DNA of 64,000 nucleotides from Acidobacteria bacterium SCN 69-37 (GTDB lineage: Bacteria; Acidobacteriota; Vicinamibacteria; Vicinamibacterales; SCN-69-37). Below, piece by piece: positions 6,224-26,516 of the stretch; the stretch's first letter is position 1; each line of letters starts with the position of its first letter. The position numbers and the translations under genes are program-made. Under the pieces are notes generated by a model that made no database searches, was not told the DNA's origin, and worked only from the letters and a program-made list of their open reading frames with translations. The DNA is taken from the NCBI GenBank assembly GCA_001724025.1, contig MEDJ01000019.1:94359-158358 (forward strand), in the 5' to 3' direction.

Positions 6224-6479
6224 TGCCGACGAGAAGGAGTTGCTTGGCTCCGTCGAGCGTGGCGAATGGAAGTCCGCCAAGGGCGGCAAGCGCGAGCGCG
6301 CCCGGTACTCCCGTTACGCGAAGGCCACGTTCCGCAAGGATCGACGGCTGAACATCCGGTTGTCGAGCAAGGATCTGGAGGCGATCCAGAAGCGGGCGCT
6401 GGCAGAGGGCTTGCCGTATCAGACGTTGATCTCGAGCCTGCTACACAAGTACGCGTCGGGGCGCCTAAAGGAAGTCTGA
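6213..6479 (+). CDS. brnA: BrnA-type (CopG/RHH-like) antitoxin
   Basis: C-terminal RLNIRLSSKDLEAIQKRALAEGLPYQTLISSLLHKYASGRL. Start ATG 6213 overlaps the brnT 3' end. Confidence 0.7.
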   Translation: MKLDADEKELLGSVERGEWKSAKGGKRERARYSRYAKATFRKDRRLNIRLSSKDLEAIQKRALAEGLPYQTLISSLLHKYASGRLKEV

Positions 6480-6500
6480 CTTCACGGTGTCTGGGCTGTC

Positions 6501-8342
6501 TCAAGTGCCTCGTGCTTTCTCTTGGTCAACAGTGCCGGGCTCGTCGCGGCCTGTTCCACCATAGTCACCGTTTCGAAAGCGTTGCATCGCCGCTTCGGCT
6601 ATCACATCGAATCGCCCCTTAATAATGGCGCGGACGGCCTCAGTATTGAAGCGGTCGCCATTCGGCGCCATGAACTCCTCCAGCGAGATCATCCTCGACG
6701 GATGTGCCCGGTGGAACGACTTCAGGATCGAGTCCAGGCGCTCGCCTGTCACCTGAATCACAGCAGATAACCGATCGAGCGCGTCGGCTGTCATGACTGT
6801 GAGCGGCCACACTTTCGGATGGCCTACCTTCAGTCGTGGTTCCATGGAACGCAGGAAACGATCGGACAATACACGCATGACGGGACCGGCGTTGATGATC
6901 GGGTCCTGAACAACCAACACGGGATATATGTCCTCCACTGCGCGAAGGCCTCGAATGGAACTCTTCGCGGTTTGATTGAACCATACGGCCTCGATTCCGC
7001 TGCGGAGCTGATAGAGTCCTCCGTGCTTGACGTGCCCGAATTTCTGCGTCAGCCCCCTGAAGAACGCGGCTGGCTCCCCAGAGTACTTGTCGCCAGACTT
7101 GATGAATGTCCCCTTGCATTCGATCACGATGGCCGCGCCATCTCGAACAGCGACGGCATCCCAGAGCTCTTCGTTTGAAGATTCGTCGAGCGGGTTGGGG
7201 ACAAAGAACCAGTTTCTGGCCCGAAATATTTTGTCGAGACGGTCGAGGCAATAGGCCTCGAACGCGGACCCCCATGTACTGGTGAATTGCTTGCGACGCG
7301 CCATTGTGTCGAGCGCATTCATCACGCTCCAGAAGGCGTGCGCGCCGAGTCGCTCTACCAAGAGCGCGACGTCAATGCATAGCGCGTCTCCGTTGGGCAT
7401 GATCCAGAGCGGCGAGGCGCGGAACGGAGTCAAGTCGAACAGCGTCGTGCGGGAAAAACTCTCGATCTTGAGCCTGTCAGGCAGTTCGGCGAACGGCGTA
7501 CTAAGCGAGGCTAGCGCCTGAAGCAGCACTTCCTTCGATATCGTCTCGTGTGGCTGATCAGGGTTTAGATAGCCGCGTGACCGATCCGCCATCAGTTGCT
7601 TGAAGGTCACGGCAGACCAGAATGAGAACAGAAGGAAGCTGAGATCCAGCCAAGCTTCCATGCTGAACCCTGTTGTGAACAATGCGATGCGTTCGAGTCG
7701 TTCGAGATCCGCAGGATCCGCTGCGGCGGCCGGGAGCCTGCGGGTGAATAGGTCATGGACGCGAGGCCACGAAATCTCGATCGCTGGGGGATTTTCGGTC
7801 TCGTGCATTGGCCCCATCTGCGTTGCCAACCAGAGCGCAGTGGCTTTCTTGGACGGCGGCTCCTCGACACGGAACAGCCCATTCGTGAGAAACAACAAGT
7901 CGCCGATCACGTCGAAGTCGTCCCGCGTTTGAAGACGATTCCCGCCATCCGCGCGGCCCCAGGTGGCAACCAAACGAGTGACAAACAGGAGCTGCGTCCG
8001 ATGCAACAACGGTCGATTCAGCAGTGATGCGGCACCGAACTGTGCCTGAAGAGTGCGAAGCAACTTCTCGCTGATGACCTCGCGAATCAACCAGGTCTGC
8101 ACATCGCGAACCGGCTCGACGTTGTTGGTGAATTCCGTCTCGATCGTCGCGGACGACAGGAGCAGATTCAGAAACCCGAGAAAGTGCAGAGCCTCGTCGC
8201 GGTTCAACGTCGAGGCAAGCCCCGATAGCTCGGCGTAGTCGACGCTGCGACCGGGGAAGACCTCCTCCGGGGAAATGAAGGTTCTGATGATCTGCGGCAC
8301 GAAGTCACCTTGTTTCGTTCGACGATAGCCCGCACACTTCAA
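6501..8342 (-). CDS. Hypothetical 613-aa protein with PD-(D/E)xK-like motif in the C-terminal half
   Basis: Long ORF with no competing ORF. The motif string is GSAFEAY...ELWDAVAVRDGAAIVIECKG (E ... D ... E-x-K). No family recognised. It lies 95 nt downstream of the DUF6527 gene on the same strand. Confidence 0.55.
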   Translation of the reverse strand: MKCAGYRRTKQGDFVPQIIRTFISPEEVFPGRSVDYAELSGLASTLNRDEALHFLGFLNLLLSSATIETEFTNNVEPVRDVQTWLIREVISEKLLRTLQAQFGAASLLNRPLLHRTQLLFVTRLVATWGRADGGNRLQTRDDFDVIGDLLFLTNGLFRVEEPPSKKATALWLATQMGPMHETENPPAIEISWPRVHDLFTRRLPAAAADPADLERLERIALFTTGFSMEAWLDLSFLLFSFWSAVTFKQLMADRSRGYLNPDQPHETISKEVLLQALASLSTPFAELPDRLKIESFSRTTLFDLTPFRASPLWIMPNGDALCIDVALLVERLGAHAFWSVMNALDTMARRKQFTSTWGSAFEAYCLDRLDKIFRARNWFFVPNPLDESSNEELWDAVAVRDGAAIVIECKGTFIKSGDKYSGEPAAFFRGLTQKFGHVKHGGLYQLRSGIEAVWFNQTAKSSIRGLRAVEDIYPVLVVQDPIINAGPVMRVLSDRFLRSMEPRLKVGHPKVWPLTVMTADALDRLSAVIQVTGERLDSILKSFHRAHPSRMISLEEFMAPNGDRFNTEAVRAIIKGRFDVIAEAAMQRFRNGDYGGTGRDEPGTVDQEKARGT

Positions 8343-8833: not shown

Positions 8834-10017
8834 GGCAATTCCGATTCACTGCTGATTTTCATATCGCCGATGCCAAACAACAGATTGTAGAGGGGCGTTT
8901 CCTCGAAGTAGAAGCCGCGCAGCTGCTTGAACCTGATGACCGCAAGGCAGGCGTTGAGTGCATTCAGTTCAGCAATCTGAATGTTCGCCCGATAGACGTC
9001 GTCCGGCCGGTCGGCGAGATCGACCAACTGCTTGTCCCGAACGATCTGCGCATTGGCGGCGGAGAAATACGTAACGCGCACCATGCCATTCAGAGCGCCA
9101 CGTTTTCGGTTGAGGCCCATGCCGACATCGATGAAAGGGATCTTCTTCGCGATGAGAGCGTCGATGATCCCCGCGCGAGCAGAACCCTTGTCGACGCAGA
9201 CGAATGCGAACGTGACTCCGTCGAGGTCATCGGCTGATTGCGGATCGATGAATTTGGGCGCTGTTGACAGACCGTGACGAAAATTCTCATAGCGAGCCTG
9301 GTAAACGACACTCTTGTGCTTGCCGAACTCTGCTTCCTCGACGCGACCGGGAGAGCGAAATGCGTTATGCACGTAGTAGAAATCCAGATCGAACGAGCGA
9401 ATCTCGCGCACCGGAGTCTTGACGATGAAGTCCAGCACGTAGGCACCCGTGCCGCCGAGACCAATCACGGCGATGATGTCGTCCTTGAACCTCGCGACGA
9501 GATCCGTGATTTCCGCTCTGCTCGTCAGCGTGTCATGGAACCTAAAAATGCTATCGGGCGCCACCTGTTCAACCGAGCGAAACGTGTAGGGGTTGGCGCC
9601 GTGCCTTTCAATGGCTGGACCGGAAATAATGGCGACGTAACTCTCGATCTTGTCGAAGAAATCAGCAAATGCTCCGGTCGCCTTCGGTTTGTTGGAGAAG
9701 GACCGCTGAACGACCACGTCGTTACAGGCGTCGCTTAGAGTGACCTGACAAGTACCGCCGCCGAGATTCGGGATCGGATTCCCATCGAGACCGTGCGGCA
9801 CGGATCCGGCGAAGAAGACCTGATGGTCATCCTGCCTGACTCGATCCAGATCGAGGAACACGAGTTTCGCAACCAGAGCGCCAGTCTGAAGTGCGCCGGC
9901 CGCGTCGAGATACGGAATGTCGCGCACGACGAGATGGTTCGTGTCGAACGCGACCGCGTGGCCCTTTTCGACGAGCCGGCGGAGGTCGTCGTTACGACTG
10001 ACCAGTCTCTGAAACAT
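8830..10017 (-). CDS. ThiF/E1-like adenylyltransferase with ~170-aa N-terminal (possibly E2-like) extension
   Basis: Rossmann nucleotide loop IAVIGLGGTGAYVLDF. The N-terminal extension contains HQVFFAGSVPHGLDGNPIPNLGGGTCQ. It is translationally coupled to both neighbours. Confidence 0.8.
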   Translation of the reverse strand: MFQRLVSRNDDLRRLVEKGHAVAFDTNHLVVRDIPYLDAAGALQTGALVAKLVFLDLDRVRQDDHQVFFAGSVPHGLDGNPIPNLGGGTCQVTLSDACNDVVVQRSFSNKPKATGAFADFFDKIESYVAIISGPAIERHGANPYTFRSVEQVAPDSIFRFHDTLTSRAEITDLVARFKDDIIAVIGLGGTGAYVLDFIVKTPVREIRSFDLDFYYVHNAFRSPGRVEEAEFGKHKSVVYQARYENFRHGLSTAPKFIDPQSADDLDGVTFAFVCVDKGSARAGIIDALIAKKIPFIDVGMGLNRKRGALNGMVRVTYFSAANAQIVRDKQLVDLADRPDDVYRANIQIAELNALNACLAVIRFKQLRGFYFEETPLYNLLFGIGDMKISSESELP

Positions 10018-10405: not shown

Positions 10406-11539
10406 TTAGTTAAAGGCGGTGAGCACAGCACGCTCGGCTTCGGCTGGCGGGATTCTCTCCTGCTCGAGCATCCATGGCCCTGCCACGACCGCGTTCAAAG
10501 CCTCTCGCTCGACATCGGTCAGATGCGAGTGGCGGGCGGATGCGTCTCGTTGACCCGGTAACGCAAGATGCCTCCATCGACACCAGGCGGTGTGGTCCAT
10601 CAGCAGGCTTCGGACTTGCGGAAAGCTTGATCGGAGCCCCGAGAGAATGCCGTACCCGGCTTCATCGCAATCACCCCAATAGACGATCTGAGTCGACGCC
10701 ATCCAACGGCACGCCGGGAGTATCGATGCCGCCTTGCCTGACCCAAAGATGGCTAACGTGCGAGGGATCTCGGGCAGGCACAGAAACACGTCCCGATTCT
10801 CGACTACGAGTACACGCTCCGGGACCCATGAGATATTCGCAAAACTTGGCGCCGGCACGGAGCAATCATCGACTGGCCAGCCGACGCGTTCCCGAAGCCG
10901 CTGATCCAAGAAGCGAAAGCGAACCGGCGCCGGATCTGCCAAAAGGTGAAAGCGCTCGGCGAACGTCGCGCCCTCTACGTTGACGCGATCGCCCAGCACC
11001 ACATCGAGCAGCTCGCGAAGAATCCCGGCGTGTTCTTCAACGAACTTCGTCCCAGCTGGCAGCGGTATCTGGCGCGCGAAACACCGTGGCGTTGGATTGG
11101 CATCAAAGTATGCGCAGACAGCAACCAGAGCTGGCCACTCTTCAAGGTAGTCAACGATACGGTGCGCTCTCGCGCGCACCCATGGCTCCAGCGCCGGACA
11201 CGACTCCCGCGCTCTACGAACCGCGTCGTGGAACGCTTCAAACTCGCGCGAGCGGCCCAAAGCCGCCGCCATGTCATCGGCTGACCCAAATGTGATTCGC
11301 ATCGGCCAGCGTTGACGTCCCCACTTGCGCGTTTGAATTTCCTGCCATTCGATTTGCCATTCATGATGGGTCGCCGCCAACGCCTCGATGTCGCGCTTCA
11401 ATTCCGCAAAGTCGGCGGTGGTCCGGGGACGGCCGAACGGAATCTGCAGAGGAAACAGACTCTCGCCAGCTGCCTCCGCGCGCAGGACAGCTGGCCACCT
11501 GCTTAGCGCTCCTTCGAGAATATCTTCTGGCTTTAGCAT
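10406..11539 (-). CDS. jetD: Wadjet JetD (DUF3322 + Toprim/DUF2220 nuclease subunit)
   Basis: Toprim-like VLVVENRDVF and YWGDCDEAGYGIL. Last gene of the jetABCD order. Confidence 0.85.
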   Translation of the reverse strand: MLKPEDILEGALSRWPAVLRAEAAGESLFPLQIPFGRPRTTADFAELKRDIEALAATHHEWQIEWQEIQTRKWGRQRWPMRITFGSADDMAAALGRSREFEAFHDAVRRARESCPALEPWVRARAHRIVDYLEEWPALVAVCAYFDANPTPRCFARQIPLPAGTKFVEEHAGILRELLDVVLGDRVNVEGATFAERFHLLADPAPVRFRFLDQRLRERVGWPVDDCSVPAPSFANISWVPERVLVVENRDVFLCLPEIPRTLAIFGSGKAASILPACRWMASTQIVYWGDCDEAGYGILSGLRSSFPQVRSLLMDHTAWCRWRHLALPGQRDASARHSHLTDVEREALNAVVAGPWMLEQERIPPAEAERAVLTAFN

Positions 11540-11556
11540 GCAGACCTTGCGGGCCC

Positions 11557-14500
11557 TTAGGCAGGAGACGCTGGCGATGGCGGGGACTGCAACGCTTCTG
11601 ACTGCAGGCCGTTGGCTTCAGGTCCAGCCTCAACTTGCTCCCGAGTCAGCGCAATCAGCCGCGAACTGTTCCCTGACGGGTTCGAAGCCAAGTGAATCGT
11701 GCGAACAAACGGCACGGCGAGCTTCGCTTTCGCGTCGAATGGTCCGACGATGAGCAGCTGGAATCCAAGCTGAGAGAACAGCTGCATCGCGCGAGTGGAA
11801 TTCGATTCGTCCGTGCGCGAGAACGCTTCATCAATAACCACGAGGCGGAAGTTGGGAGCGTCCTGAGCAGCCGTGGACAGACCGTACTGCGCGGACAAAG
11901 CCGATGCGAGAATCGTGAAGGCGAGCTTCGCCTTTTGTCCTCCAGATTTGCCCGTCGTCGCGGCGTAGTAGTTGACCTCGACGTCGTCCGACCTACGCAA
12001 CTCTCGGACGCCAGCGGCAAACCATGTACGAACGTCCGTCACGCGTTGCGTCCCCTCAGGATCGCGTTGGAACTGTTCCAGGAGCAGGCGGACACGCTCG
12101 AAGATTCGCAGGCGCTCATCCGGTGCCGGCGCGATGCCATGTTCAAAACAGTCGCGCAAAGACCGGCGAAACTCAGCGACCTCATGTCCAGGGCGGCTCA
12201 CCAACCGCAGTTGGACGTATGTGTCGTCGGCGTAATCGATACCGCGTAGAGCCTCATTGATCTCCTCTATTCGGCCCTCGATCGCCTCCTGATGCTCCTC
12301 AAGACGGCGATTGAGCATCAACAGGTCACCTACGAGGTTTTCGTTCAGGTAGTGTTCGAACCGTTCCCTATGACGCGGTAGGTCTTCCTCCTCGATGCGA
12401 TGAAGTACGGCGGCGAAACTGTCGGCGTAGGCGCGGCCCACTTCAAGCGTTTGGCGGAAGTCAGGAAACTGACCTAGGAATTCGCTCATGCCCGCGACCA
12501 TCTTCTCGACGGCTTCGTTCACTCGACGCTGTTCATTGCTGATGCGCCCCTGCAGGCTCTGATGGGCGGAATGTGTGAGCTGATCGGCGTTCTCGAGTGT
12601 GAGGGGAGGCAGGCCTGCGGTGATATCGGCAAAGGCCGCCTCCAACCCGTCGTGATCGAAGCCGCTCAAGTCAGCAAGTTGCTGCTCACGGTCGGAGGTG
12701 CGACGTTGACAAGCTTCCAGCCGGTCGCGCACACGTCCGAGTTCCCCGTCGCGTTCACGCAGGTCATCCTCCCCGGCCTGGATGGCAGTATCAATATTCC
12801 GCAACCGTTCCTGGAGAGCTCGAAGTTCTTTCGAGCTCCGCTCTAAGAGGTCTTGCTCGGTCCGTAACCGCATGACCTCGTGGAGCCAGTGCTCAGGATC
12901 TATCTCAATAAAATCACGGATCGCCAACAGCTCGCGGGCGGCGCTCGCACGTTCCCGCGCTGCGCCCGCGCTCCGACCTGCCGCTGTGGCGGCGTTGGCT
13001 TCGGCTAGGGCTCGTTCTTCCGCTTCGCGAATCTGAAGGCGGAGGGCGGCGATCTTGCGGTCCGTCGACCAGCCGAGAATTCTGGCACTGTAATCGTCGA
13101 CGCGCCTGCCATCATCCTTGACATGCCGAGTGCCTTCACGAATTAGGCCCTCGCGCGTGAGACCGCGGTCCACGCCTTCGAGTTCCACAATTGACGCGCA
13201 ACATCGATGATTAAATCGGCGCACTAGCTCATTCGCCACCCATAGATGCAGCGGATGGTCTATCCGAAATTCAAGCCGCCCCGGCACGCGATCGTTCGAC
13301 AAGCTCGGTGGTCCGACATGTTGATCCGGCACACGATGAAAGGTGAGACGCAGGCCGAGCAGCGTGGAGTTCACGAACTGGGCCGCCGGCCTGTACAAAT
13401 GTTCAGGGACCAAGAGGGACAACCCAAAGCCGCGAAGTAGGCGTTCAATCGCGCCGGTCCAATCCTCGTACGTGTTTCGAACCTCTATCAGCTCACCCGC
13501 GAAAGGCATCGCCTCAGTGCCCACCCCGACTACCTGCGCGATGCGGGCACGAACTGCCAGAAACTCTCGAGGAATATTCACGCGATGGCGTTCGACACTT
13601 TCGAGTTCGGCGGCCTTTTCAACGCGTACCTCAAGTGCCAATTCCTGAGCGTGTCGTCTGGCGGCACGCAGCTCGTCCGCCTCGCTCGCCGCGACGCTTT
13701 CCACGCGCTCGCGTTCCTCCCATCCAACGCGAGCACCGACGAAAGCTGCGGCGTCAGCCAATGAAGAAATCGCGGCAAGCAGCTGCGCCGCAGGTTCGAC
13801 ACGCGTGCGGCGATGCTGCGCGTTCAGTCGCGCTTGTTCGGCGTGGTGCAGTTCGCGCTCGATGGCTTGGAGGCGCGGCCCAACGTCAGTCTGTGCGATA
13901 GCGGCATTGACATCGTCGCGTTCACGTCGGTGGTCGGCTAGACGCGAAGCGACCATTGCGCGCGCGGCCTCTGACGATGCGACCACGGTCGCGAGTTCAA
14001 TGGCATGGGCTCGAAGCAGTGCCAAGTGGCGGCTCGCGAAGTAGGGGATTGCAAGCTCCTGCAGCTGTCTCCAGACCTCGATCCGCTGCTCACCGTCGGA
14101 GATGCGACGACCGCGTTCGGCTACGGGACCGAGTAGGGCAATCTGACGTTCAGCGCGCTCGATCGCTGCCCAGCAATCGAGGAGCGTCCTGTAATGGGGC
14201 TGGACGGTATCGCGGATAAACGAGAATGTGTCAGCGGCCGGCAACATGAACTGCCGAACGAATGCGTCGATGTCGCTGACCTCCTTCATGCCGATCGCCC
14301 GGTTGAACACTTCAAGCGCCTTGTCGCCTGGAATATGCAGCAGACTGCGCATCCTTTCCGCGTAGGCGGCGAAGCTGTCCTCGACCTGCCAACCATTACG
14401 GCGGGCCGCCCGTCGGATTTCACTCGTGTTGGTATGTCCTTCGATCAGGTCGCTCAAACTTCGGCGACCTTGCGCCACCGCGTAAACCTCGCGAACCTGC

Positions 14501-16986: not shown

Positions 16987-19900
16987 TTAGCCAACTCGCG
17001 CGACCTGCCATCGCGATTGCCCCAGACCCTTCTCGACTTCTATGCAGCCAGGCAAGCGTTCGGTCAGGTCACGGATATGCGTAATGATGCCGACCATCCT
17101 TCCGCCGCTCCTGAGCGATTCGATCGCGTCCGTGACGATTTCAAGCGCTTCAACGTCCAACGTGCCGAACCCTTCGTCGATGAAGAGGCTGTCGATTTGA
17201 ACGGCACCGGCCGTCCGCAGAATTTCTTCACTCAATTGCAGCGCCAGCGACAACGATGCCAAGAAGGTCTCACCTCCACTAAGGGTTTCGGCGCGTCGAC
17301 GCTCACCGCCGTTGTCGTGATCGATCGCGTAGAAGGCGCCGTCATCCCATTGCAGGGTGTAGCGGTTCGTCCATTCCTTCATCCGTACGGACGCACCGTC
17401 GACAAGGCCGCGGAAGGCCTCTTCGAGTAGATATCGCTGGAAGCCGTCATTCTTCAGGTCACGCGCCAACTGCTCCGAGAGCGCAGAACGACCCTCGAGC
17501 GCGGCCTTCTCCTTGCGGAGCGCGACCGCACGCTCGACCTGAACAACCAGCCGCTCCACGTCTTGGCGAGAGCGTGTAAGCGTCTCCAGCGTCGCGTGGT
17601 GTGACTGCGCTGCACGCTGCGCTTGCTGTCCTGCCTCGCGGTGGTCCTGCTCCGTGACATACCGTCCCGCGAGCGCGTTCTCCAATTCGAGCACCCGGAC
17701 CTCGACCTGGTGACGTTCCGTTTCGTAGCCTCGGATCGACGCATCGAGCCGTTGTTGGGCCTCAGCCGGCAGAACTGCAGCACGTGTCACAGTCGGATCC
17801 GCGAATCCGCTGTCAACAAGGGCCTTGGAGGCCTCCGCATTGGCGCGATCGGCCTCCGCTTGCCGCTCCGTCATTCTTTGTTCCGCGCCACGTTCGGTTG
17901 CAATCGCCCGCTCCAACGACCGCTTGGCCGCTTCCAGCGCTTCCTGAGCCTTGCGCTCGGACGTCTCAAGGTTGGCCACTTGTTTGACCAGTTGTTCCCG
18001 TTCGCCGGCAGGATCGGAGCTCTTCGTGACCCCCACTATTCGCGATGTGATCTGGGATCCCTCCTCCTCAAGTTGACTCAATCGGGAACGTAACTCCTCG
18101 GTGCGCGCGAGGAGGTGTTGAACAGCGGTGGCAGCTTGATCCTGCCGATGCCTGGCCTGTTGCCGCGCCAGATCCGCCCGGTTGATGCGCTCGCCAGCCG
18201 CCTCGAATTGCTGCTTCAACGCTGCACAACTGTCGCCCTCAGTCGAAATCGCTTCGAACACCTCGGCCGAGAGGATCACCGCGCGTTGAGAGGCTGCGAC
18301 AACGCCAGCCACCTTCTTGGAAGCCTTCGCGATCCCCTTCTCGATTTCCTGCAGGTCAGCCGTGCGCTCCTCCGCCACTTCACGGCGCTCCTTGGCCTGG
18401 GATACCGCGCCGGCCGCAGTCTCTCGGGATTGCTCGAGCGCACGATTCGCTTTCGATTCTGCGCGTTTCGCCTGTTCTACTGCATCTTCGCGGTCCTCGA
18501 GCTCGGGCGCCCGAAGTCGCCGCGGCAGCCGCTCGATAACGTGTTCACACACGGGACAAGGCTCACCTTGCTCCAGCGTCGGGCGAAGAGCCGCGGCATG
18601 ATTCGCGTTGCGCGCTTGTTGAAGTGCAGCTTCGGCCTTGATGACTTGCTCGTGCGCGCGATCGAATGCCACCTTGTGTTTCTCGACAGACGCGGCGGCG
18701 TCCTTCACGGCGAGTTCCGCCTCGGTCGCTTTGTTCGCTGCGACTGTTGCTTGTCGTTTCGCAGCCGTCAGCCGGTGATGGAACTCACGGCCTCGGATGG
18801 CGTCCGCAACAACCTCTTGAAGCGCACGGTACCTGTCGGCGTCATAACCGATAGTCTTTCTTGCCGTCCTCGCGTCAGCAAGTTCACGCTCGGCGGCGGT
18901 GCTTGTCGATTCGGCCTTTCGCTGCTCCGCCACCGCTGCTTTGTGGTCCTTCGTAACGGTGGCGATCGATGAGTTCGTCGACTGGGCTTCGTTAGCAACC
19001 TTCTTCTGCCGCTCGATTACCCCGCGGAGCTCATCGAGAGCTTGAATTCGCTTGCGAAGTCCGGCAATCGCTGTGAGTTCACGTTGCGCGTGTTCATGGG
19101 AGGTCGATTGGCGCCCTAAATCGGACTGAGCGGACTCTGTTTGGGTGTGTGCTTGGCGAAGCTCTCGCTGAGCGCCCGCGACCCGAGCGTTCGCATCGTC
19201 CAGCGTTTCAAGACGCGGAATCACCAATGCGGCCCGGCGCGCTCTATCGAGCCGGTCGCGATCTGCGGAGACTTGCTCGCGCTGCGAATCGAGTTGCTTG
19301 AGCCGAGCGCGGTTTGAAGCGAGTTCGGTCGACTGAACGAAGCGCGCTTGAATCTCCTGCAGCTGCTGTGCAGCCGTTTCCGAGGCGGTCTTCGCGAGCG
19401 CTTCTTGGCCGCTTGCCTCGTCGAACTTGCCGCGTGCCGCTTCGAGATTCTCGGAGGTCGAATCGGCATAGTCCTGATCGAGGCGTTCACGCATGAGCCG
19501 CAGTTGTTGTTGCTGCTGACGCGACTCCTGCTCGGCTTGCAGCCGCATTCGCTCATACACATCGAGCTTCAGCAGCTCGCGGAGAATCTTGCCGCGTTCG
19601 CCAGGATCACTGTGCAAGAACCTGTCGAATTCACCCTGAGGTAGAAGGACCGTTTGGATGAACGTCTCGTACTGCAAGCCAGTGAGGGCGGCGATCTGTT
19701 CGTCCGCGTCGCGAACCTTGTCGGCAAGCAGCCGTGTGTTGCCGTTCGTGATCTCTTCGAGAATCACGGAGGCCGCCTTTTTACGTCGCAGCGCACGGCC
19801 GACGCGGAATTGCCGATCACCGACGACGAATTCCAGCCGGACCGCCATGCGGTCTCGCCCTAGCGACACGGCGTCAGAGATACCTTGCTTCCCCAGGCGA

Positions 19901-20064
19901 GGCACGTACCCATAGAGCGCGAACGTGATCGCGTCGAGGATGCTCGACTTTCCGGCTCCGGTCGGGCCCGAGATCGCAAAGAGGGAGAGCGCGCCGAAGT
20001 CGAGTACATCCTGTGCGTCGCGAAAGCACGTGAACCCCTCGACGTAAAGGCTGCTGGGGCGCAT
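16987..20064 (-). CDS. sbcC: Rad50/SbcC-family ATPase with zinc hook
   Basis: N-terminal FAISGPTGAGKSS, a ~700-aa coiled coil with a central CPVCEH hook, and C-terminal LSGGETFLASLSLAL...LFIDEGFGTLD. Confidence 0.85.
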   Translation of the reverse strand: MRPSSLYVEGFTCFRDAQDVLDFGALSLFAISGPTGAGKSSILDAITFALYGYVPRLGKQGISDAVSLGRDRMAVRLEFVVGDRQFRVGRALRRKKAASVILEEITNGNTRLLADKVRDADEQIAALTGLQYETFIQTVLLPQGEFDRFLHSDPGERGKILRELLKLDVYERMRLQAEQESRQQQQQLRLMRERLDQDYADSTSENLEAARGKFDEASGQEALAKTASETAAQQLQEIQARFVQSTELASNRARLKQLDSQREQVSADRDRLDRARRAALVIPRLETLDDANARVAGAQRELRQAHTQTESAQSDLGRQSTSHEHAQRELTAIAGLRKRIQALDELRGVIERQKKVANEAQSTNSSIATVTKDHKAAVAEQRKAESTSTAAERELADARTARKTIGYDADRYRALQEVVADAIRGREFHHRLTAAKRQATVAANKATEAELAVKDAAASVEKHKVAFDRAHEQVIKAEAALQQARNANHAAALRPTLEQGEPCPVCEHVIERLPRRLRAPELEDREDAVEQAKRAESKANRALEQSRETAAGAVSQAKERREVAEERTADLQEIEKGIAKASKKVAGVVAASQRAVILSAEVFEAISTEGDSCAALKQQFEAAGERINRADLARQQARHRQDQAATAVQHLLARTEELRSRLSQLEEEGSQITSRIVGVTKSSDPAGEREQLVKQVANLETSERKAQEALEAAKRSLERAIATERGAEQRMTERQAEADRANAEASKALVDSGFADPTVTRAAVLPAEAQQRLDASIRGYETERHQVEVRVLELENALAGRYVTEQDHREAGQQAQRAAQSHHATLETLTRSRQDVERLVVQVERAVALRKEKAALEGRSALSEQLARDLKNDGFQRYLLEEAFRGLVDGASVRMKEWTNRYTLQWDDGAFYAIDHDNGGERRRAETLSGGETFLASLSLALQLSEEILRTAGAVQIDSLFIDEGFGTLDVEALEIVTDAIESLRSGGRMVGIITHIRDLTERLPGCIEVEKGLGQSRWQVARVG

Positions 20065-20066
20065 CG

Positions 20067-21224
20067 CTATTCCTTCACGACCAGGTCACGGAGGTCATCG
20101 AATGCGGTCAGGAGTTGCGCCTCTGCCTCGCGCCGGTGTTCCTTTCGGTGATATGCCGCGTAGAGCTCCCGAGGGGGAGCGCCGGGTGCTGGACGGTCAA
20201 TGTCCGGTGCCTGCTCGTCTCGTGGCAGGTCCGCGTTCACCACGACTGCATTTGGCAGCAGTTGGCGCACTTTGCGAGCAATATCCGGATCACGGGCGGG
20301 CAGTAGCACCTTTACACGGAGGTGACCACTCGACCGATGACGTTCAGCGTCCCTTTCAATCTCCTCCAGCGTCCCCGACACATCGTTCAGCGGCACGCCA
20401 CCCTGATAAGGAATCGCCTCGATTCGGACAGGCAGGTGCGATGCGGCCTCGAGCAGGAGAAACTGCTTGATCTCGCCCACCTCACCGAAGTCGAGCTGGA
20501 GTGGGGAACCTGCGTAGAACGTCGGCGCAGCTGCTTCGACTTTCTGGTGCCGGTGAATATGACCGAGGGCTACATACTGCGCCGTGGCTGGAATCGCCTG
20601 AGGCATCATTGCCCACTCCTCACCGATGTGGACCCTTCGTTCCGATCCCGCAAGAATCGCATTCGCCAAGTGTGTGTGCGCGACTATCAGCCTGATGGCG
20701 TCAGGTCGGAATCCTCCAGCGAGGTGCTCCAGAATGCGCTGCATGCCATCCGCGTACTCTTGAGCCGCAATGCTGGCATCGGCGGTCACGTCAATGGCCG
20801 ATACGAGTCGGCCGACTGATGCAAACGGAACGGCGGCAATCTGTGCACGTTCTCCACTAGACGACTCGATCTCGATCAGTCCTCCGTCTTCACGGCGCCG
20901 CGGCAGGCCCACCGATCGAACCCCCACCAACTCCGCCAATGTGCCCCAGGCCTCCATCCGGGCAGGGTGGTCGTGATTGCCCGCGATCACTACACTGTGT
21001 ACGCCAGACGATCCAATCCGGCGGAAGAAGCTGAACACCATCCGCTCGGCTTCAGCCGACGGTCCGGCGCTATCAAACACATCGCCGGACATCAACAGCA
21101 GATCTACGCGCTCGCGAACCAGGAAATCTGCAAGATTGTCGAGAACAGCACCAAGTTCGGGAAGCCGATTCACGCTCTTCCAGAGCCGGCCAGCATGCCA
21201 ATCGCTCGTATGAACAATCCGCAC
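20067..21224 (-). CDS. sbcD: Mre11/SbcD-family nuclease
   Basis: Calcineurin-like motifs VHTSDWHAG, SGDVFD, IAGNHD and GHIH. GTG start at 21224, 2 nt after the herA stop, preferred over the upstream ATG at 21299. Confidence 0.85.
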   Translation of the reverse strand: MRIVHTSDWHAGRLWKSVNRLPELGAVLDNLADFLVRERVDLLLMSGDVFDSAGPSAEAERMVFSFFRRIGSSGVHSVVIAGNHDHPARMEAWGTLAELVGVRSVGLPRRREDGGLIEIESSSGERAQIAAVPFASVGRLVSAIDVTADASIAAQEYADGMQRILEHLAGGFRPDAIRLIVAHTHLANAILAGSERRVHIGEEWAMMPQAIPATAQYVALGHIHRHQKVEAAAPTFYAGSPLQLDFGEVGEIKQFLLLEAASHLPVRIEAIPYQGGVPLNDVSGTLEEIERDAERHRSSGHLRVKVLLPARDPDIARKVRQLLPNAVVVNADLPRDEQAPDIDRPAPGAPPRELYAAYHRKEHRREAEAQLLTAFDDLRDLVVKE

Positions 21225-21226
21225 GG

Positions 21227-22951
21227 CTATCCCATCCTCTCGAACGGATCGTGCGCATCGACGGTTGCGGCGACCTCGCTTTTCCTGGTCGCCCAGCACG
21301 GAAACGGGAACCGCAACAGGATCGCCATCGGGATCTCCGGCTGCGACACAATCATCGAACCGGGTTGAAGCATCGCGGCCCGTTTGCGCCCGACCGTGGT
21401 GAGAAAGCCATACTCGCCCCGGTCCGCTTCGGCTGCGTCCAGTCTTCCCACTACCTTAATGGCGGCGTTCGCCACGATTCTGCGCTCGACCTCGCTCGCC
21501 GTCTGCTGGGCGCCCAGAAGAGACACGCCGAGCGAGCGGCCACGTTCCGCGATGTCAAGGAGCACATCTCGAATAGGGCTCCACCCTTCGCGTGGCGCGT
21601 ACTTGTTCAACTCGTCGAGCACGACGAACACAAGGGGCTTCGCGCCGCCCTGCTGTTCCTTCTGCTCCATCATTCGCTTGAGCAGTACGCCCACGACAAA
21701 CATCTGTGCCGTCGAGTGCAGGGTGTGAATGTCTACGACCGTCACCTGTTGCCCGCTCCAATCGATCTGTTTACCGCGAGCGGAGGAGTCACCACTCACA
21801 AGATGACCCATGTGCTCGGCCGCCGCGTGGAGGCGCCGCCTAAACGCGTCAAGCGTTCCGCCCGCGACTGGAGCGCCTGCCATCATCGCGTCTAGCGCCG
21901 GTGTGTCGAAGAGCTCCACCAGGTCATCAAAACTGCAGATCCTGGTACCGCTGAGCGTTATCGCGGCCTCGGTTTCGTCACCTTCACGCGAGGCTCGTTC
22001 GAGTTCTCGTTCCACCCGGGTGATTACGAAATGGAACTGGGCCCGAACGTCATGAGCGCCGGCGAACGCAAAGCGCAGGAACCGATTGCGAGCAAACTCA
22101 CGGATCGTCCAGACGTACGGGTTCACGCCGTTTTGTCGACTGCCAGTGTCCGGGACCGGCGTCGAGCTGCCTCGACGGGCGGGCGCGAAGAACGACACGC
22201 TCTGAAAGGGCCCTGACGGAAGTCCAAGCGCTTCATACTCAGTCTGGTCTTCCGGTCGCAGACGCACATTCGCCTTGTCGAGCCACAGGAGATCCTCGCC
22301 CTTGACGTTGAAGATCAAGGCCTTCGCATTCGCCGCATCGATCCCGAGCGCTCCTGAATGAAAGAGCGAGTAGATCAGGAACGTCGCATAGCTCGTCTTC
22401 GTCGCGACGCCGGACACTCCGCTAATAGAAGCGTGCGCACCCCGCGTGCCGTCCAAGAACTCCAAGTTCGCGAAGATCGATTCGCCGGCTCGGGTCAGTC
22501 CGATCGGCACCGTGTGCTCCATCTGATCGAAGTAGAGCGCCCGCCGAAACGCTTCACCACGAACAACCGCTACCGCGTCACCGGGGGCGGGTGGGACAAA
22601 GATTTCTGGGTCGACGCGAGTCACCTGTACGTGGGCCGCGTACGACACTTCCACCGGGAGCGTTCCAGCCGCGACTCTGAAGGCGTCGGTGTCGAACTGG
22701 TTGCCCTCGAATTTCTTCCGGACGATGTCAACGATTCCATAGAAGGAGACGCGCGTGCCGTCCGGGGTCACCGTTTCGACGACGATAAGGTCGTCGAGCT
22801 GGACCATCTGACCCTCACCAACACCGATCCAAAACTCGAGCGGGGTCGCATCCATTGAGCCAAGGACAAGACCGACTGGCTTGATTAGGCGTTCAGAACT
22901 GTCTACGCGGCCCGGTTGAGGCGACGGTACCGCAATTGAAGCATCAGGCAC
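21227..22951 (-). CDS. herA: HerA-like (DUF87/FtsK-HerA superfamily) ATPase
   Basis: N-terminal barrel-like VGLVLGSMDATPLEFWIGV, Walker B VFVVLDELNKYAP, and DIAERGRSLGVSLLGAQQTASEV. The P-loop is atypical (GVSGVATKTS). The GTG start at 22951 (overlapping the nurA stop) was chosen and is uncertain. Confidence 0.75.
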   Translation of the reverse strand: MPDASIAVPSPQPGRVDSSERLIKPVGLVLGSMDATPLEFWIGVGEGQMVQLDDLIVVETVTPDGTRVSFYGIVDIVRKKFEGNQFDTDAFRVAAGTLPVEVSYAAHVQVTRVDPEIFVPPAPGDAVAVVRGEAFRRALYFDQMEHTVPIGLTRAGESIFANLEFLDGTRGAHASISGVSGVATKTSYATFLIYSLFHSGALGIDAANAKALIFNVKGEDLLWLDKANVRLRPEDQTEYEALGLPSGPFQSVSFFAPARRGSSTPVPDTGSRQNGVNPYVWTIREFARNRFLRFAFAGAHDVRAQFHFVITRVERELERASREGDETEAAITLSGTRICSFDDLVELFDTPALDAMMAGAPVAGGTLDAFRRRLHAAAEHMGHLVSGDSSARGKQIDWSGQQVTVVDIHTLHSTAQMFVVGVLLKRMMEQKEQQGGAKPLVFVVLDELNKYAPREGWSPIRDVLLDIAERGRSLGVSLLGAQQTASEVERRIVANAAIKVVGRLDAAEADRGEYGFLTTVGRKRAAMLQPGSMIVSQPEIPMAILLRFPFPCWATRKSEVAATVDAHDPFERMG

Positions 22952-23927
22952 GAACGGTCTCCCGCAGAATAAGTTCGGCAAGACGACGTCGAATGACGCG
23001 CGGATCGCCGAGCTGATGACGAAGATGCATTTCGAGCGCACCGATAGGTAGCAGGTTCTGTGGAGCCCGCGGATCACGACCGCGATTTGGCACAAACCGT
23101 GGCAGGACAACCGTCACCGCATCCGCCAACGCGCGCGCGGTCTCGAAACCAACAACGTCGGCAATTTCGAGCCGCGCAAGACCGGTTAGATCCCCGTCGA
23201 TCGGGAGCCGCAATGCCAGGCGCACGAACCACGAGAATCGTCCGAATCGCGCGCCTCCTCGAATATGAAACACTGGGGAACGAGCGCCAAGCGGCAGGTT
23301 TGCCAGCGTTCGGAGTTGAACATTCCCTACGTAAATCTTGAAGAATCGCTTGACGAACCCAAGGGCCTGACCACGCGACGCCTCTCCAAACGTCAGGGGG
23401 CCATCTGCAACGACGAGAGTGGCTCCATCCGCCGCGCATGTGCGAGCCAGTAGCGCCTCCGCTGCCCGCATCGCTTCGAACACCACCAGCGGCGGACCAT
23501 CTGCGTCGTCACGAGGTGAGCTTGAAGGCTGGTAAGTCAGCGCTGCGCCGAGATCGAGCGGCCGAGGAAGACATTCGCCGCTACCGAGGACCGCAATGTG
23601 GCCGATTTCTTCTTGACCGCACGCTGCTCGCCCATCCGCAACCCGGACCGCTCCGACACCGTAGCTTCCGATTACGCCGTGAATCAGGCGGTCATCGCGG
23701 CGAACCAGAAGTCGTGCCTCTACCCGACGAACTCCATCTATAAAGACAATCGTCGCTGGGAGGTGGCCAGTCACCGGCAAGACTGGCGTCCACGCGTCGG
23801 ACTGCTGTTCAACTGAAAGATCAACTTCTTCCGCTGGCTCAAGAGAGCCTGCCTCGATTGACAATTCGCCGGAGTACTCCGCTTCCCAAGGGTCCAGGCG
23901 CACGTCAAAGGTTCCGAAGAGCCCCAT
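22944..23927 (-). CDS. nurA: NurA-like nuclease
   Basis: Acidic motifs IVFIDGVRR and LVVADGPLTF, and position immediately upstream of herA. Start ATG 23927 follows AAGGGAG. The call rests on weak motifs plus context. Confidence 0.6.
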   Translation of the reverse strand: MGLFGTFDVRLDPWEAEYSGELSIEAGSLEPAEEVDLSVEQQSDAWTPVLPVTGHLPATIVFIDGVRRVEARLLVRRDDRLIHGVIGSYGVGAVRVADGRAACGQEEIGHIAVLGSGECLPRPLDLGAALTYQPSSSPRDDADGPPLVVFEAMRAAEALLARTCAADGATLVVADGPLTFGEASRGQALGFVKRFFKIYVGNVQLRTLANLPLGARSPVFHIRGGARFGRFSWFVRLALRLPIDGDLTGLARLEIADVVGFETARALADAVTVVLPRFVPNRGRDPRAPQNLLPIGALEMHLRHQLGDPRVIRRRLAELILRETVRA

Positions 23928-23944
23928 CAACGCAACTCGCTCCC

Positions 23945-24214
23945 TTACGCAGCTGTTCCCACAATGCGAATTCCAGCGCGGACTTGCCCGGCGCGCCCGC
24001 CGAGATCCACGACGACATGCCAATGGCCAATCGAAGGCGGACGCATTTGGACAGGCGACTTCGTCGCCCACCCTCCGTAGTACGTGAAACGGCCACCGTT
24101 TCGATACGATGAGAATGCGAGATCATCCAGCAGCATGACATTCGCTTGACCATCGAGCGTTACGACGACGACGTTGTCGGGGCCACCATTGAAATCCGTG
24201 TGAAGAAAGTTCAT
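23945..24214 (-). CDS. DUF1883-like small protein
   Basis: 89 aa. Sequence ANVMLLDDLAFSSYRNGGRFTYYGGWATKSPVQMRPPSIGHWHVVVD matches my recollection of DUF1883. Its ATG overlaps the ImmA stop (ATGA). Confidence 0.55.
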   Translation of the reverse strand: MNFLHTDFNGGPDNVVVVTLDGQANVMLLDDLAFSSYRNGGRFTYYGGWATKSPVQMRPPSIGHWHVVVDLGGRAGQVRAGIRIVGTAA

Positions 24215-25137
24215 TCCTCACCTCCTTCGAACCCAGTGATCTGAATACGGCGATGCGGAATCACGACTCGAGTTTCGGTGACTCGTCGCTCCTCCACGAA
24301 GAGTGTCAGGAGATAGTGCTGATTGTTGAATGACCACGCACGCACTTCATGGCGATCACTCCTGGCATCAACCAAACCGAGACGAAATTCGGCAACCTTT
24401 CCGCCCTTCTTGTAGCTCGCATGGCTATCGACGGCCACACGAAGTGACTCGGCGGAACTGTCTGGAAACAGTCTGGAGAACCGTTCGGACGGAACGAAGT
24501 GGCGCCATCGATGTTCCTGGTCATCGGGTTGCTGCGCCCACAGCGGCGTGCTGACCAGCATCGCCATCGCCAGATCTGGCCCTTGTTCGACGTAACGCCT
24601 TAGCGTCGTAGTCAGGGATGCTCGGTAACGCTTCGCGAGTGACTTGACGGATTCGATCGTCGGCACCACATCCCGTGCGTCCTTTGTGAATCGGTCGCCG
24701 AGGAACAACAGCCGACCAGCCGCGTAGTTGGCCTCGGCCTCCAGATCCGCCTGATAGGCGGGATCGAGCGTCTGAGCGGTGTCCCCGAAGAAGAACGGTT
24801 TGTGCCATGGGAGCAGCCGATGCCCAGTCTCGTGGCATGAGGCCCACGGATGCTTGATTCTCGGTAACTCCTGATCGATACAGATGCGGTTCTCGTCAAA
24901 GAGAAGCACGGCTTGCAGACGGACCTTGTTGATGATGTCGACGAGTTTGTGGCCCTGGATGCGAAGCTTGTGTTTGGCGCGATCAAGAAAACCTGGATTG
25001 GCCAGGTCGTAGTAATCGCGATGGAGTTGAACGTGCTGGAGCAGCTGTTCCACGGAGAGCGGAGGCTCTGTGAGACCGGCGTCCCGCAGCGTCGCCGCAG
25101 CAATCCGTTCGATTTCCGCGCGTGTCGCTCGGTCCAT
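24211..25137 (-). CDS. ImmA/IrrE-family zinc metallopeptidase
   Basis: HExxH motif in WASCHETGHRLLPWH, with a downstream EANYAAGRLLF segment typical of the DUF955/ImmA fold. It follows an XRE gene. Confidence 0.8.
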   Translation of the reverse strand: MDRATRAEIERIAAATLRDAGLTEPPLSVEQLLQHVQLHRDYYDLANPGFLDRAKHKLRIQGHKLVDIINKVRLQAVLLFDENRICIDQELPRIKHPWASCHETGHRLLPWHKPFFFGDTAQTLDPAYQADLEAEANYAAGRLLFLGDRFTKDARDVVPTIESVKSLAKRYRASLTTTLRRYVEQGPDLAMAMLVSTPLWAQQPDDQEHRWRHFVPSERFSRLFPDSSAESLRVAVDSHASYKKGGKVAEFRLGLVDARSDRHEVRAWSFNNQHYLLTLFVEERRVTETRVVIPHRRIQITGFEGGEE

Positions 25138-25154
25138 AGCTACTCACTGCGCTG

Positions 25155-25820
25155 TTAGCGATCTGATCGAAGAAACCCAACAAACTCATCCAACACGCGC
25201 TGTTCTTCCTTCGTCAACTTTGAAAAGGAGTTTGACTGTGCCGCGAACCGTGCGGCGTGTTGTCGCAAGTCTTCTGGCACCTCACGGATGGCGCCGGCGA
25301 GAACTGCCAGCTTTCGGTCAGGCACCCCGAAGAACTCACTGAGGCGGTGCAGTGTCAACGGTGATGGACGATACGCGGGACTTCGCTCGAGAGCCACGAG
25401 CTCAGTGCGATCGATCTTGGTCTTCTCCGCAAGGTCATCGATCGACAATCCGCGAGACCGGCGAAGCATCTGGACGACGCGGTGAAATGCCTCGCGAATC
25501 TCCAATTCCTCGGGCTCGCGGGCGGTCATGACGACCGTGAGCTTCTGATTGAGCGCTGTCGCAATCCGTTCCAGCACCGAAAGAGACCGCCCCTCGTAGT
25601 CGGCGTCTTCGAGACGACTGATCACGGACTGCGTTGTCCCGATGAGTTCGGCTAGTTGCTGCTGTGAGAGGCCCGCTGCATTCCTCATCTCGTGAATCAA
25701 GCGGGCCACTTCAGCATTGACTCGTTCTTCTTGAAGCGCAGCCTTGCGCTCTGGATCATCCTTCACGTACCGACCGTGAAGGATCCTGACCGCATCCCGC
25801 GTCTTGTCCTTCTTGGTCAT
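25155..25820 (-). CDS. XRE-family regulator with two HTH modules
   Basis: HTH 1 is LSQQQLAELIGTTQSVISRLE and HTH 2 is LSIDDLAEKTKIDRTELVALE. It lies between the toxin-like gene and the ImmA gene. Confidence 0.8.
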   Translation of the reverse strand: MTKKDKTRDAVRILHGRYVKDDPERKAALQEERVNAEVARLIHEMRNAAGLSQQQLAELIGTTQSVISRLEDADYEGRSLSVLERIATALNQKLTVVMTAREPEELEIREAFHRVVQMLRRSRGLSIDDLAEKTKIDRTELVALERSPAYRPSPLTLHRLSEFFGVPDRKLAVLAGAIREVPEDLRQHAARFAAQSNSFSKLTKEEQRVLDEFVGFLRSDR

Positions 25821-25823
25821 CGT

Positions 25824-26186
25824 TCACTCCTCATAGGTATGTCGCTTGGGGTTTTGAATGAACCGAGTTCTGTTACCGACCGCGCGATCGATCTCAGCCG
25901 GCGGAACGACGTCCTCCTTGGTACATCCGTGGCTCAAGATCGCGCGACCTTCATGGAAGAAATAGAGAATCCGGTGATGCACGTTGCCATGTCGCACCCG
26001 CAGTTCATAGATGTCATCGCGCAAATAATCCGCTTCTGGACGTCTCAATTCGTGTCCGCGTTCCGCGAGCCGTTCGATGCGAACGGTACACTTGTCGCGA
26101 GCCTTGACTTGGAGAGCGTCCATCCACGCCAGTAGCGGCGATGAACCATCCTCGGCGGCAAAGATCACAACCTCCGTCTGGGGCAC
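25824..26186 (-). CDS. Gp49/HigB-like (RelE/ParE superfamily) toxin-like protein
   Basis: 120 aa. Sequence LRVRHGNVHHRILYFFHEGRAILSHGCTKE is typical of the phage Gp49 (DUF891) family. GTG start. Confidence 0.7.
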   Translation of the reverse strand: MPQTEVVIFAAEDGSSPLLAWMDALQVKARDKCTVRIERLAERGHELRRPEADYLRDDIYELRVRHGNVHHRILYFFHEGRAILSHGCTKEDVVPPAEIDRAVGNRTRFIQNPKRHTYEE

Positions 26187-26209
26187 TCGGGCATTCCTCG
26201 CTGCAAACT

Positions 26210-26255
26210 ATCGCATTTTTGCTATGTGTTGTCAACTCAATTTTGCGATACTGAG
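26210..26255 (-). promoter_or_regulatory. Promoter/operator element, copy B (twin of 10269-10315)
   Basis: Minus strand reads CTCAGTATCGCAAAATTGAG-TTGACA-ACAC-ATAGCAAAAATGCGAT, then AGT completes a GATAGT -10-like hexamer 17 nt after TTGACA. It ends 24 nt before the GTG start of the toxin-like gene. Confidence 0.55.
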
Positions 26256-26516
26256 CCCTCATGGCTGGCGACTCCGCCACCTTCAGCGGTTGAGTTCCAC
26301 TTGGAAGCCTCAATCGGATTCTGAAGCTTGGCTGTAGACCGGCTCGAATTCTGGCGGGTCGCGGATCTCCGATCACATTCCTGAGATCGCGCAGGCTATC
26401 TTCGTCTCGCACAGGGCACTCGATCTCCCCATCGTGCTGAAAGAAGGCCTTCAAGCTGTGGCATTGCATGTGAACCGGAACATAGCGCCGGCCTCTCACC
26501 AGCTCCCAGGAGCCCT

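Follow-up and report, generated by a model that had tools for sequence, protein, structure and literature searches.

A four-gene cassette in Acidobacteria bacterium SCN 69-37 on balance probably joins a HigB/HigA-type (Gp49/Tad-Ata) toxin–antitoxin (TA) module to a CapH/CapP-type repressor–protease switch. The cassette lies on the minus strand of a 64,000-nt stretch of contig MEDJ01000019.1 (positions 94,359 to 158,358), hereafter the window, whose coordinates we use unless another locus is named. It encodes, in order, a Gp49/HigB-like protein (26186–25824, 120 aa), an XRE protein with two helix-turn-helix (HTH) modules as a candidate bipartite repressor and antitoxin (25820–25155, 221 aa), a zinc metallopeptidase of the M78 (ImmA/IrrE/CapP) type with an HExxH motif (25137–24211, 308 aa) and a DUF1883 protein (24214–23945, 89 aa). 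An earlier note on this DNA had described three tightly spaced genes, for a Gp49/HigB-like protein, a double-HTH XRE protein and a peptidase with the motif HETGH. We confirmed all three at these coordinates, and DUF1883 extends the module to a fourth conserved gene. The parts of the cassette are known; their combination is undescribed.

The 221-aa XRE protein is a fusion in which residues 1–100 are a HigA-type antitoxin and residues ~100–221 a full CapH homologue. HTH_3 matches it over two stretches, 42–94 and ~119–171 (E=8.6e-20). An AlphaFold2 (AF2) model (predicted local distance difference test, pLDDT, 78.8) has five helices in each HTH and a linker between them, with an N-terminal tail before HTH1 and two helices after HTH2; the tail is strongly conserved, yet modelled with low confidence. 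Residues 1–105 match the antitoxin structures HigA3 (6LTY, 1e-5) and HigA (6AF3, 1e-4), and residues 1–96 are 51–65% identical to single-HTH proteins of ~100 aa. These homologues are encoded behind Gp49 toxins in Planctomycetota, Verrucomicrobiota and Cyanobacteria, and also on cyanobacterial plasmids, where the two genes are annotated as "RelE/ParE toxin" and "HTH regulator". The C-half has other relatives. Residues 117–216 match positions 13–98 of the 103-position PADLOC capH profile (2e-7), covering both the HTH and the C-terminal dimerisation part, and the N-half aligns with the HTH part alone (positions 9–65). From residue ~100 to 221 the protein is 39–42% identical to standalone CapH-like proteins of 166–168 aa, which match capH end to end and whose genes lie directly 5' of peptidases 34–39% identical to that of the cassette. 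Such standalone pairs sit beside CBASS (Nitrobacter hamburgensis plasmid 2) or Bub (ubiquitin-like) operons (Agrobacterium pAt1 and the metagenomic locus L045). A CapH repressor has one HTH plus a two-helix C-terminal dimerisation domain, ~100 aa in all; the C-half resembles it in profile match and model, but the protein has an additional 100-aa HigA-like module.

Internal duplication does not account for the two HTH modules. HTH1 and HTH2 are only 27% identical, and the two halves have separate sets of standalone relatives, which pair with different partners. The earlier note had taken the toxin gene and a duplicated HTH to be odd additions to a repressor–peptidase pair; the Gp49 toxin is instead the ancestral partner of the HigA-like half. 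Several representatives that seemed to carry the C-half only were fragments starting at internal Met codons, and we counted such cases only where a distinct N-terminus or an annotated context was present. Foldseek searches with the XRE model returned generic HTH_3 structures (HipB, SinR, C.BclI, DdrO and the CapH N-terminal domain) and did not distinguish the halves. One 320-aa homologue in the representative library (P0243) carries a low-complexity insert of ~100 residues exactly between the HigA-like and CapH-like halves, which marks the two as independent modules with a tolerant linker.

The first gene encodes a predicted toxin of the RelE/ParE superfamily. The Gp49-like protein scores 57.9 bits with PF05973 (E=1.1e-15; cut-off 23.9 bits), and its sole matches in the PDB are weak ones to Mycobacterium tuberculosis HigB1 (E=0.21–0.25). 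Eight residues (R51, P52, E63, L64, R65, R74, Y77 and K89) are invariant among 17 distinct orthologues from several phyla, and the family, plain two-gene pairs included, keeps invariant basic residues of RelE/HigB-like type. Gene order runs from toxin to antitoxin in all loci, with the RelE-fold gene first and an XRE antitoxin adjacent, as in HigBA and Tad-Ata. These conserved basic residues, together with the conserved N-terminal tail of the XRE protein, indirectly suggest that the Gp49-like protein is toxic and that the antitoxin neutralises it. We considered whether the toxin is dispensable, as its apparent loss from loci L040/41 might imply, and rejected the idea: those loci are riddled with insertion sequences (IS), are decaying and retain a 3' remnant of the gene. 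In L040/L041 the last ~35 Gp49 codons remain (9889–10001), and IS elements interrupt the cargo.

The third gene encodes a predicted regulatory protease of the IrrE/PprI/CapP type, with the M78 zinc site and the three-domain architecture of CapP in its modelled structure. A peptidase domain (HETGH at 102–106, E133 and E135) is followed by a helical linker and a GAF/PAS-like C-terminal domain (~190–288) of alpha/beta structure. The protein scores 21.5 bits against PF06114 (Peptidase_M78), just under the cut-off of 22, and matches PADLOC capP at E=1.3e-15. Across 58 homologues H102, H106, E133 and E135 are invariant and E103 is nearly so. An AF2 model built on these homologues (pLDDT 84.7; predicted template modelling score, pTM, 0.80) aligned over its whole chain with PprI bound to single-stranded DNA (ssDNA) (8SLN, 5e-10), IrrE (3DTE, 5e-9) and CapP (7T5T, 1e-7), in alignments of 286–311 columns. 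Foldseek also aligned it with 6CYY, an IrrE-like M. tuberculosis regulator. DdrO/IrrE (PprI) of Deinococcus is a pair related to CapH/CapP. Sequence searches of the PDB, with the single sequence and with a 58-sequence profile, gave no match, so the peptidase is placed by its predicted structure only; in NCBIfam neither the peptidase nor DUF1883 nor the product of the following gene is covered by a model. Together with the capH match of the XRE C-half, the fold bears out the proposal of the earlier note that the pair is of the CapH/CapP–IrrE kind.

The peptidase may carry a control element of its own. About 33% of CapPs have a cysteine-switch loop over the active site, which is not obligatory (10.1101/2022.04.27.489752; 10.64898/2026.05.16.725639). 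The cassette peptidase has no such loop and no Cys between H106 and E133. In the corresponding position, loop 107–125 has invariant H112, F116, T120 and A121, and is flexible and of low confidence in the AF2 model. This loop could be a histidine-based autoinhibitory switch. The segment HETGHRLLPWH also has the metzincin-like spacing HExxHxxxxxH through the invariant His112.

DUF1883 travels with the other three genes and is probably a modulator or sensor of the peptidase. The protein matches PF08980 at E=2.5e-23 and the PDB entry 2B1Y (Atu1913) at E=1.7e-8. Its start codon overlaps the peptidase stop (ATGA), an arrangement of translational coupling, and elsewhere the domain is fused to TIR effectors. 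It accompanies the trio in loci L003/38, L004, L006, L009, L010, L026–35, L036/37, L040/41, L047–49 and L050–52. In L007 (Obscuribacteraceae) the trio is kept and a DUF1883 match was not found.

On comparative evidence, a palindromic operator embedded in the cassette promoter predicts autoregulation of the HigBA/Tad-Ata kind. The promoter and its two palindromes span 26250–26207 on the minus strand, an architecture conserved 5' of the cassette in relatives. The sigma-70-like promoter (26235–26207; TTGACA, 17 nt, TGcGATAGT) agrees with 10 of 12 consensus positions, was rated strong and is the sole convincing promoter within 20–28 kb of the window. It lies ~20 nt 5' of the GTG start of the Gp49 gene, which has a ribosome-binding site (GAGGAA) 7 nt upstream. 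The first palindrome, O1 (TATCGCAAAATTGAG, 26250–26236), abuts the −35 box (TTGACA, 26235–26230), and the second, O2 (ATAGCAAAAATGCGAT, 26225–26210), overlaps the extended −10 box (TGcGATAGT, ending at 26207).

The operator recurs at one other place in the window, in front of a second immune operon. A near-copy of the whole promoter with both palindromes lies 16 kb away, 5' of a Bub operon on the minus strand (10310–10266), and comprises TATCGCAAAATTGCG, TTGACA and the perfect palindrome ATCGCAAAAATGCGAT. These are the only two sites for the motif in the 64-kb window; a search of the window found none near the type IV secretion system (T4SS) genes. Among relatives, the palindrome TATCGCA-N4-TGCGATA covers the −10 box in nearly every case, in single-HTH and double-HTH loci alike. 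The relaxed motif T[CA]GCA-N3-5-TGC[GT]A occurs almost solely once per locus in ~620 kb of fetched loci, and in nearly all of them it stands 33–53 nt 5' of the first cassette gene. Single-HTH loci have one palindrome, over the −10 box; a second was present in 11–12 of 14 double-HTH loci, usually 24–25 bp upstream, at the −35 box.

HTH1 is the likely reader of this operator. No segment of the family is better conserved than the HTH1 recognition helix (TTQSVISRLE), whose column identity is 0.93 against 0.67 for the equivalent in HTH2. Since single-HTH pairs have the operator too, this conservation assigns putative operator binding to HTH1. By analogy with CapH, whose HTH docks on the GAF domain of CapP in a published model (10.1101/2022.04.27.489752; 10.64898/2026.05.16.725639), HTH2 is more likely a protein-contact domain.

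The cassette is tightly packed and continues into a train of nuclease and SMC-type genes on the same strand. Its junctions measure +3 nt (Gp49/XRE), +17 nt (XRE/peptidase) and −4 nt (peptidase/DUF1883), and after a further 17 nt the train begins, with genes for a putative NurA, a HerA-like ATPase, SbcD, SbcC and JetABCD. A terminator scan found no terminator-like site at the gene junctions; the one minus-strand match in the cassette–train stretch falls within the peptidase coding sequence, and shuffled sequence gave about as many matches overall. Metatranscriptome contigs of relatives from soil and rhizosphere, 85–99% identical to the cassette (23900–26300), cross all three junctions. As contigs with possible DNA carry-over they are weak evidence, compatible with co-transcription; cassette relatives seem to be transcribed polycistronically in situ, and the contigs are silent on induction. 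We found no RNA runs of the source organism. All four genes have a ratio of nonsynonymous to synonymous substitution rates (dN/dS) of ~0.06–0.07 where dS is unsaturated; most pairs are synonymous-saturated, leaving 3–9 usable pairs of 15 per gene.

The cassette is a portable, autonomous four-gene unit with variable cargo. The four genes occur together, with junctions of at most 15 nt, from 97% down to ~50% peptidase identity, in metagenome-assembled genomes of Terriglobia, Methylomirabilota and Acidiferrales and in many soil contigs. Repeatedly a large immune operon follows in the same direction after 17–120 nt. The cargo is the putative NurA/HerA/SbcCD/JetAB set in the window and in L026–29, a type III CBASS (Trip13-like AAA, Cap8, HORMA, SMODS and SAVED) in L036/37, and DUF2188 with Metallophos (SbcD) and AAA_27 in L009/10/40/41. 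In L004, L038 and L050–52 only small open reading frames (ORFs) or housekeeping genes follow. The earlier note had called the module the head of a defence train. The same head precedes CBASS and SbcCD-like pairs elsewhere; the frequent cargo-free copies make heading a defence train one use of the cassette and not a defining one. Copies also occur in chromosomes with no conjugation genes. A search of 50,697 phage records returned no match, and no plasmid record contained the fused XRE protein at 80% coverage or above.

We propose that the cassette is a proteolytic switch that silences itself and its targets until a signal arrives. The proposal builds on what is observed here: gene content, domain homologies, the modelled peptidase fold, a conserved operator, a variable cargo and two XRE halves that also occur apart. 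An XRE/M78 pair in one tight operon with nuclease and SMC genes makes proteolytic derepression the most economical reading. The 221-aa protein would repress its own promoter, with HTH1 dimers on the palindrome over the −10 box and on the −35 copy, and its conserved N-terminal tail probably keeps the Gp49 toxin inactive. The CapH-like half (HTH2 and the two following helices) is probably where the protein oligomerises and where the peptidase docks and cuts, and oligomerisation through it is probably needed for cooperative occupancy of O1 and O2. By analogy with CapP and PprI, ssDNA arising from DNA damage or infection, or another such signal, would activate the peptidase. The active enzyme would cut the CapH-like C-terminal domain, and cooperative operator binding would be lost. 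The output would be derepression of the cassette, of the co-transcribed putative NurA/HerA/SbcD/SbcC/JetABCD train, a long operon of predicted anti-plasmid and anti-phage function, and of the Bub operon at a distance of 16 kb. The toxin would render the cassette addictive and may add growth arrest when the antitoxin is lost.

Several points weigh against this proposal. DNA binding, toxin neutralisation, cleavage, trigger and outputs are steps that we infer, with the ssDNA trigger taken by analogy. Classical capH/capP genes diverge from their target operon, whereas the cassette is co-directional with its cargo. The peptidase has no CapP cysteine switch, falls slightly short of the Pfam M78 cut-off and found no PDB match by sequence. 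A C-terminal cut would spare the N-terminal antitoxin part, so toxin release is not a necessary consequence of cleavage. Because the HTH–peptidase protein of PD-lambda-2 is toxic and its HigB-like partner rescues, the roles of toxin and antitoxin could be swapped here as well. The cassette is often free of cargo, and regulation of immune genes therefore cannot be its sole function. The cargo may also contain internal promoters.

The cassette could instead be first of all a self-contained abortive-infection TA of the PD-lambda-2 or RosmerTA type, in which the activated peptidase destroys the antitoxin, the HigB-like mRNA-cleaving toxin stops translation and the defence genes are read-through passengers. 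Conservation of the four genes as a unit down to ~50% peptidase identity, cassettes standing alone among housekeeping genes and small ORFs (L004, L038, L050–52) and invariant putative catalytic residues in the toxin all suit it; HigB/XRE/M78 combinations defend unaided in PD-lambda-2 and RosmerTA, and a three-component TA of this sort was predicted in 2009 (PMC2701414). We nevertheless consider this reading unlikely. The CapH-like half shares ancestry with regulators of CBASS and Bub operons, the cassette repeatedly lies directly 5' of and co-directional with large immune operons at gaps of 17–120 nt, and an operator copy before a second immune operon makes sense only for a transcriptional regulator. 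Reversed roles as in PD-lambda-2, with a toxic peptidase (perhaps together with the XRE protein) cleaving cellular targets under restraint by the Gp49-like protein, DUF1883 or both, would draw on the toxicity of the PD-lambda-2 HigA–peptidase fusion alone, its rescue by the HigB-like protein, the small third protein that its defence requires and the translational coupling of peptidase and DUF1883 in the cassette. This arrangement is quite improbable, given that none of the four proteins matched a PADLOC model of PD-lambda-2, that the peptidase fold is that of regulatory proteases with cognate repressors as known substrates, and that the Gp49 family retains RelE/HigB-like invariant basic residues even in two-gene pairs.

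The neighbourhood raises a different possibility, an ImmR/ImmA-type switch of a conjugative element that controls excision or transfer genes and not defence genes. A distance of 1.4 kb separates the cassette from a divergent VirB2/3/4 operon of the T4SS, and ImmR/ImmA of ICEBs1 is the classical XRE/M78 pair. We give this reading hardly any weight, because the operator is confined to the cassette and Bub promoters, with no copy near the T4SS genes, because the cassette is also found in chromosomes that have no conjugation genes and beside CBASS, and because the phage records gave no match. On the absence of the operator from the T4SS region and of phage matches we rejected a switch of the integrative-element or prophage-lysogeny type. 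It is highly improbable, too, that an ordinary HigBA pair neighbours the peptidase and DUF1883 by chance, with no proteolytic link and a degenerate appendage for a second HTH. Plain two-gene HigBA-like pairs do have the operator and the N-half in common with the cassette, but the four genes are co-inherited over several phyla with junctions of at most 15 nt, dN/dS is ~0.06 in all of them, and the C-half is a full homologue of CapH, with homologous peptidases adjoining its standalone relatives in every case.

Read as a composite switch, the cassette departs from CapH/CapP in gene content, orientation and repressor design. CapP cleaves CapH upon ssDNA, in the C-terminal dimerisation helix at F82–R83, and the pair is already tied to CBASS, Bub, DISARM, Wadjet and DUF2188 operons (10.1101/2022.04.27.489752; 10.64898/2026.05.16.725639). 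The cassette resembles it in an XRE repressor with a two-helix C-terminal domain, in an M78 peptidase of peptidase, linker and GAF-like domains, and in its association with CBASS, Bub, DUF2188 and Wadjet-type immune operons. Its repressor adds an N-terminal HigA-type antitoxin/HTH module, the apparent operator reader; it begins with a HigB-like toxin gene and ends with a DUF1883 gene; and its peptidase has the invariant His112 in a flexible loop instead of a cysteine-switch loop. In all cases of Lau et al. 2022 (10.1101/2022.04.27.489752) capH/capP lie upstream of the operon on the opposite strand, whereas the cassette is the 5' end of a same-strand operon. The CapH/CapP papers describe a single-HTH repressor and discuss no toxin; a vapC-like gene beside a CapH–CapP fusion passes uncommented (10.1101/2022.04.27.489752; 10.64898/2026.05.16.725639).

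Close precedents for the cassette are also found among TA systems, in PD-lambda-2, RosmerTA and the prediction of Makarova et al. 2009. PD-lambda-2 has been proven to defend by abortive infection (Vassallo et al. 2022, PMC9519451). It has a HigB-like protein, a protein that fuses HigA to a peptidase, and a third, small one; toxicity resides in the HigA–peptidase fusion and is relieved by its HigB-like partner (PMC9519451). The cassette is like it in placing the HigB-like gene first, in linking a HigA-like HTH to an ImmA/IrrE peptidase and in having a small accessory protein, third there and fourth here. In PD-lambda-2 the HTH and peptidase form one polypeptide with a single HTH, and the accessory protein is P4-antitoxin-like; the cassette has separate genes, a second, CapH-like repressor half and DUF1883. 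PD-lambda-2 is not known to drive downstream immune operons, and PADLOC models for it matched none of the four cassette proteins. RosmerTA is likewise a TA defence, proven by experiment, and its antitoxins fuse an XRE HTH to a Zn-peptidase (Millman et al. 2022, 10.1101/2022.05.11.491447). The PADLOC RmrA profile weakly matches the cassette XRE protein (1e-8) and peptidase (3e-4). RmrA is a single fused protein, whereas the cassette keeps XRE and peptidase as separate genes 17 nt apart; RosmerTA toxins are unrelated to Gp49, and the system has two genes, with no CapH-like tail, DUF1883 or cargo.

Makarova, Wolf and Koonin (2009, PMC2701414) predicted a TA with a third component, a COG2856 protease that would cut the Xre antitoxin partnered with a RelE or PIN toxin, and classed Gp49 (COG4679) with an Xre antitoxin as the Tad-Ata type (PMC2701414). 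Their prediction dealt mostly with proteins that fuse Xre to COG2856, and control of immune operons was never linked to it; neither a double-HTH fusion nor a DUF1883 partner is described there. The ImmR/ImmA repressor of integrative elements and prophages controls the excision and transfer genes or the lytic genes of its own element; here the operator is absent from the T4SS region, cassette copies are found away from the transfer regions of mobile elements, and the phage records gave no match. Four features set the cassette apart from its precedents: an unfused peptidase, a HigA–CapH fusion, a DUF1883 gene and a position as co-directional head of immune operons.

Some neighbouring genes and variant loci deserve mention. 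The 327-aa gene between DUF1883 and HerA, a putative NurA, has no family match in Pfam, PADLOC or NCBIfam. Within the cargo (16987–23110) the HerA-like ATPase matches PADLOC mad8 (1.5e-13) and the SbcC-like protein matches LmuB (2e-23) and mad3 (5e-16), and the cargo thus has components in common with the MADS and Lamassu families. Degraded, IS-riddled cassette copies occur in L040–44, with IS transposases in place of peptidase and DUF1883 in L042–44. L010 has an insertion of ~1.3 kb between XRE and peptidase (10666–12023), with a 311-aa opposite-strand ORF that has no family match. On an integrase-bearing element in L047 (4529–8187) the cassette lies back to back with an ordinary ImmR/ImmA-like pair, a second XRE/M78 switch of a 132-aa HTH protein and a 259-aa Peptidase_M78 protein.

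A second kind of cassette also couples a TA pair to CapH/CapP. It consists of a ribbon-helix-helix (RHH, CopG-like) protein, a GNAT acetyltransferase, a CapH-like HTH protein of ~166 aa and an ImmA/IrrE peptidase. We found it in L053 (Nitrobacter hamburgensis X14 plasmid 2, 6127–8382), L054 (Agrobacterium fabrum pAt1, 6024–8264) and L045 (4237–6505), divergent from a CBASS operon in Nitrobacter and from Bub operons in Agrobacterium and L045. The GNAT-like proteins of L045 and L053 are 40% identical. This pairing is unmentioned in the CapH/CapP papers (10.1101/2022.04.27.489752; 10.64898/2026.05.16.725639), and with it the union of a TA module and a CapH/CapP switch looks recurrent. A bolder scheme is possible, though we regard it as doubtful. 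A dedicated, signal-activated metallopeptidase, and not Lon or Clp, would inactivate a type II antitoxin; one cut would both free a HigB-type mRNA-cleaving toxin and derepress the downstream or operator-bearing immune operon; DUF1883 would sense infection or ssDNA and so gate the peptidase; and pairing a TA with CapH/CapP (HigB–HigA here, RHH–GNAT on alphaproteobacterial plasmids) would be a rule that makes such switches addictive and lethal if tampered with.

The cassette family is abundant and unstudied, and is common in soil and bioreactor bacteria (Acidobacteriota, Methylomirabilota and Gemmatimonadota). It lets the 2009 idea be tested that, for some type II antitoxins, inactivation is the work of a signal-sensing protease of their own and not of housekeeping proteases, and the test is a clean one because the HigA–CapH substrate fusion is natural and the protease is a separate polypeptide. 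It also points to modular regulation of the CapH/CapP type, since the same head stands before Wadjet with putative NurA/HerA/SbcCD, before CBASS and before SbcCD-like pairs. The operator copied to the distant Bub operon suggests joint induction of several immune systems carried by one mobile element. TA pairs beside CapH/CapP-like switches, met more than once, suggest a layer of addiction or anti-tampering on top of immune regulation.

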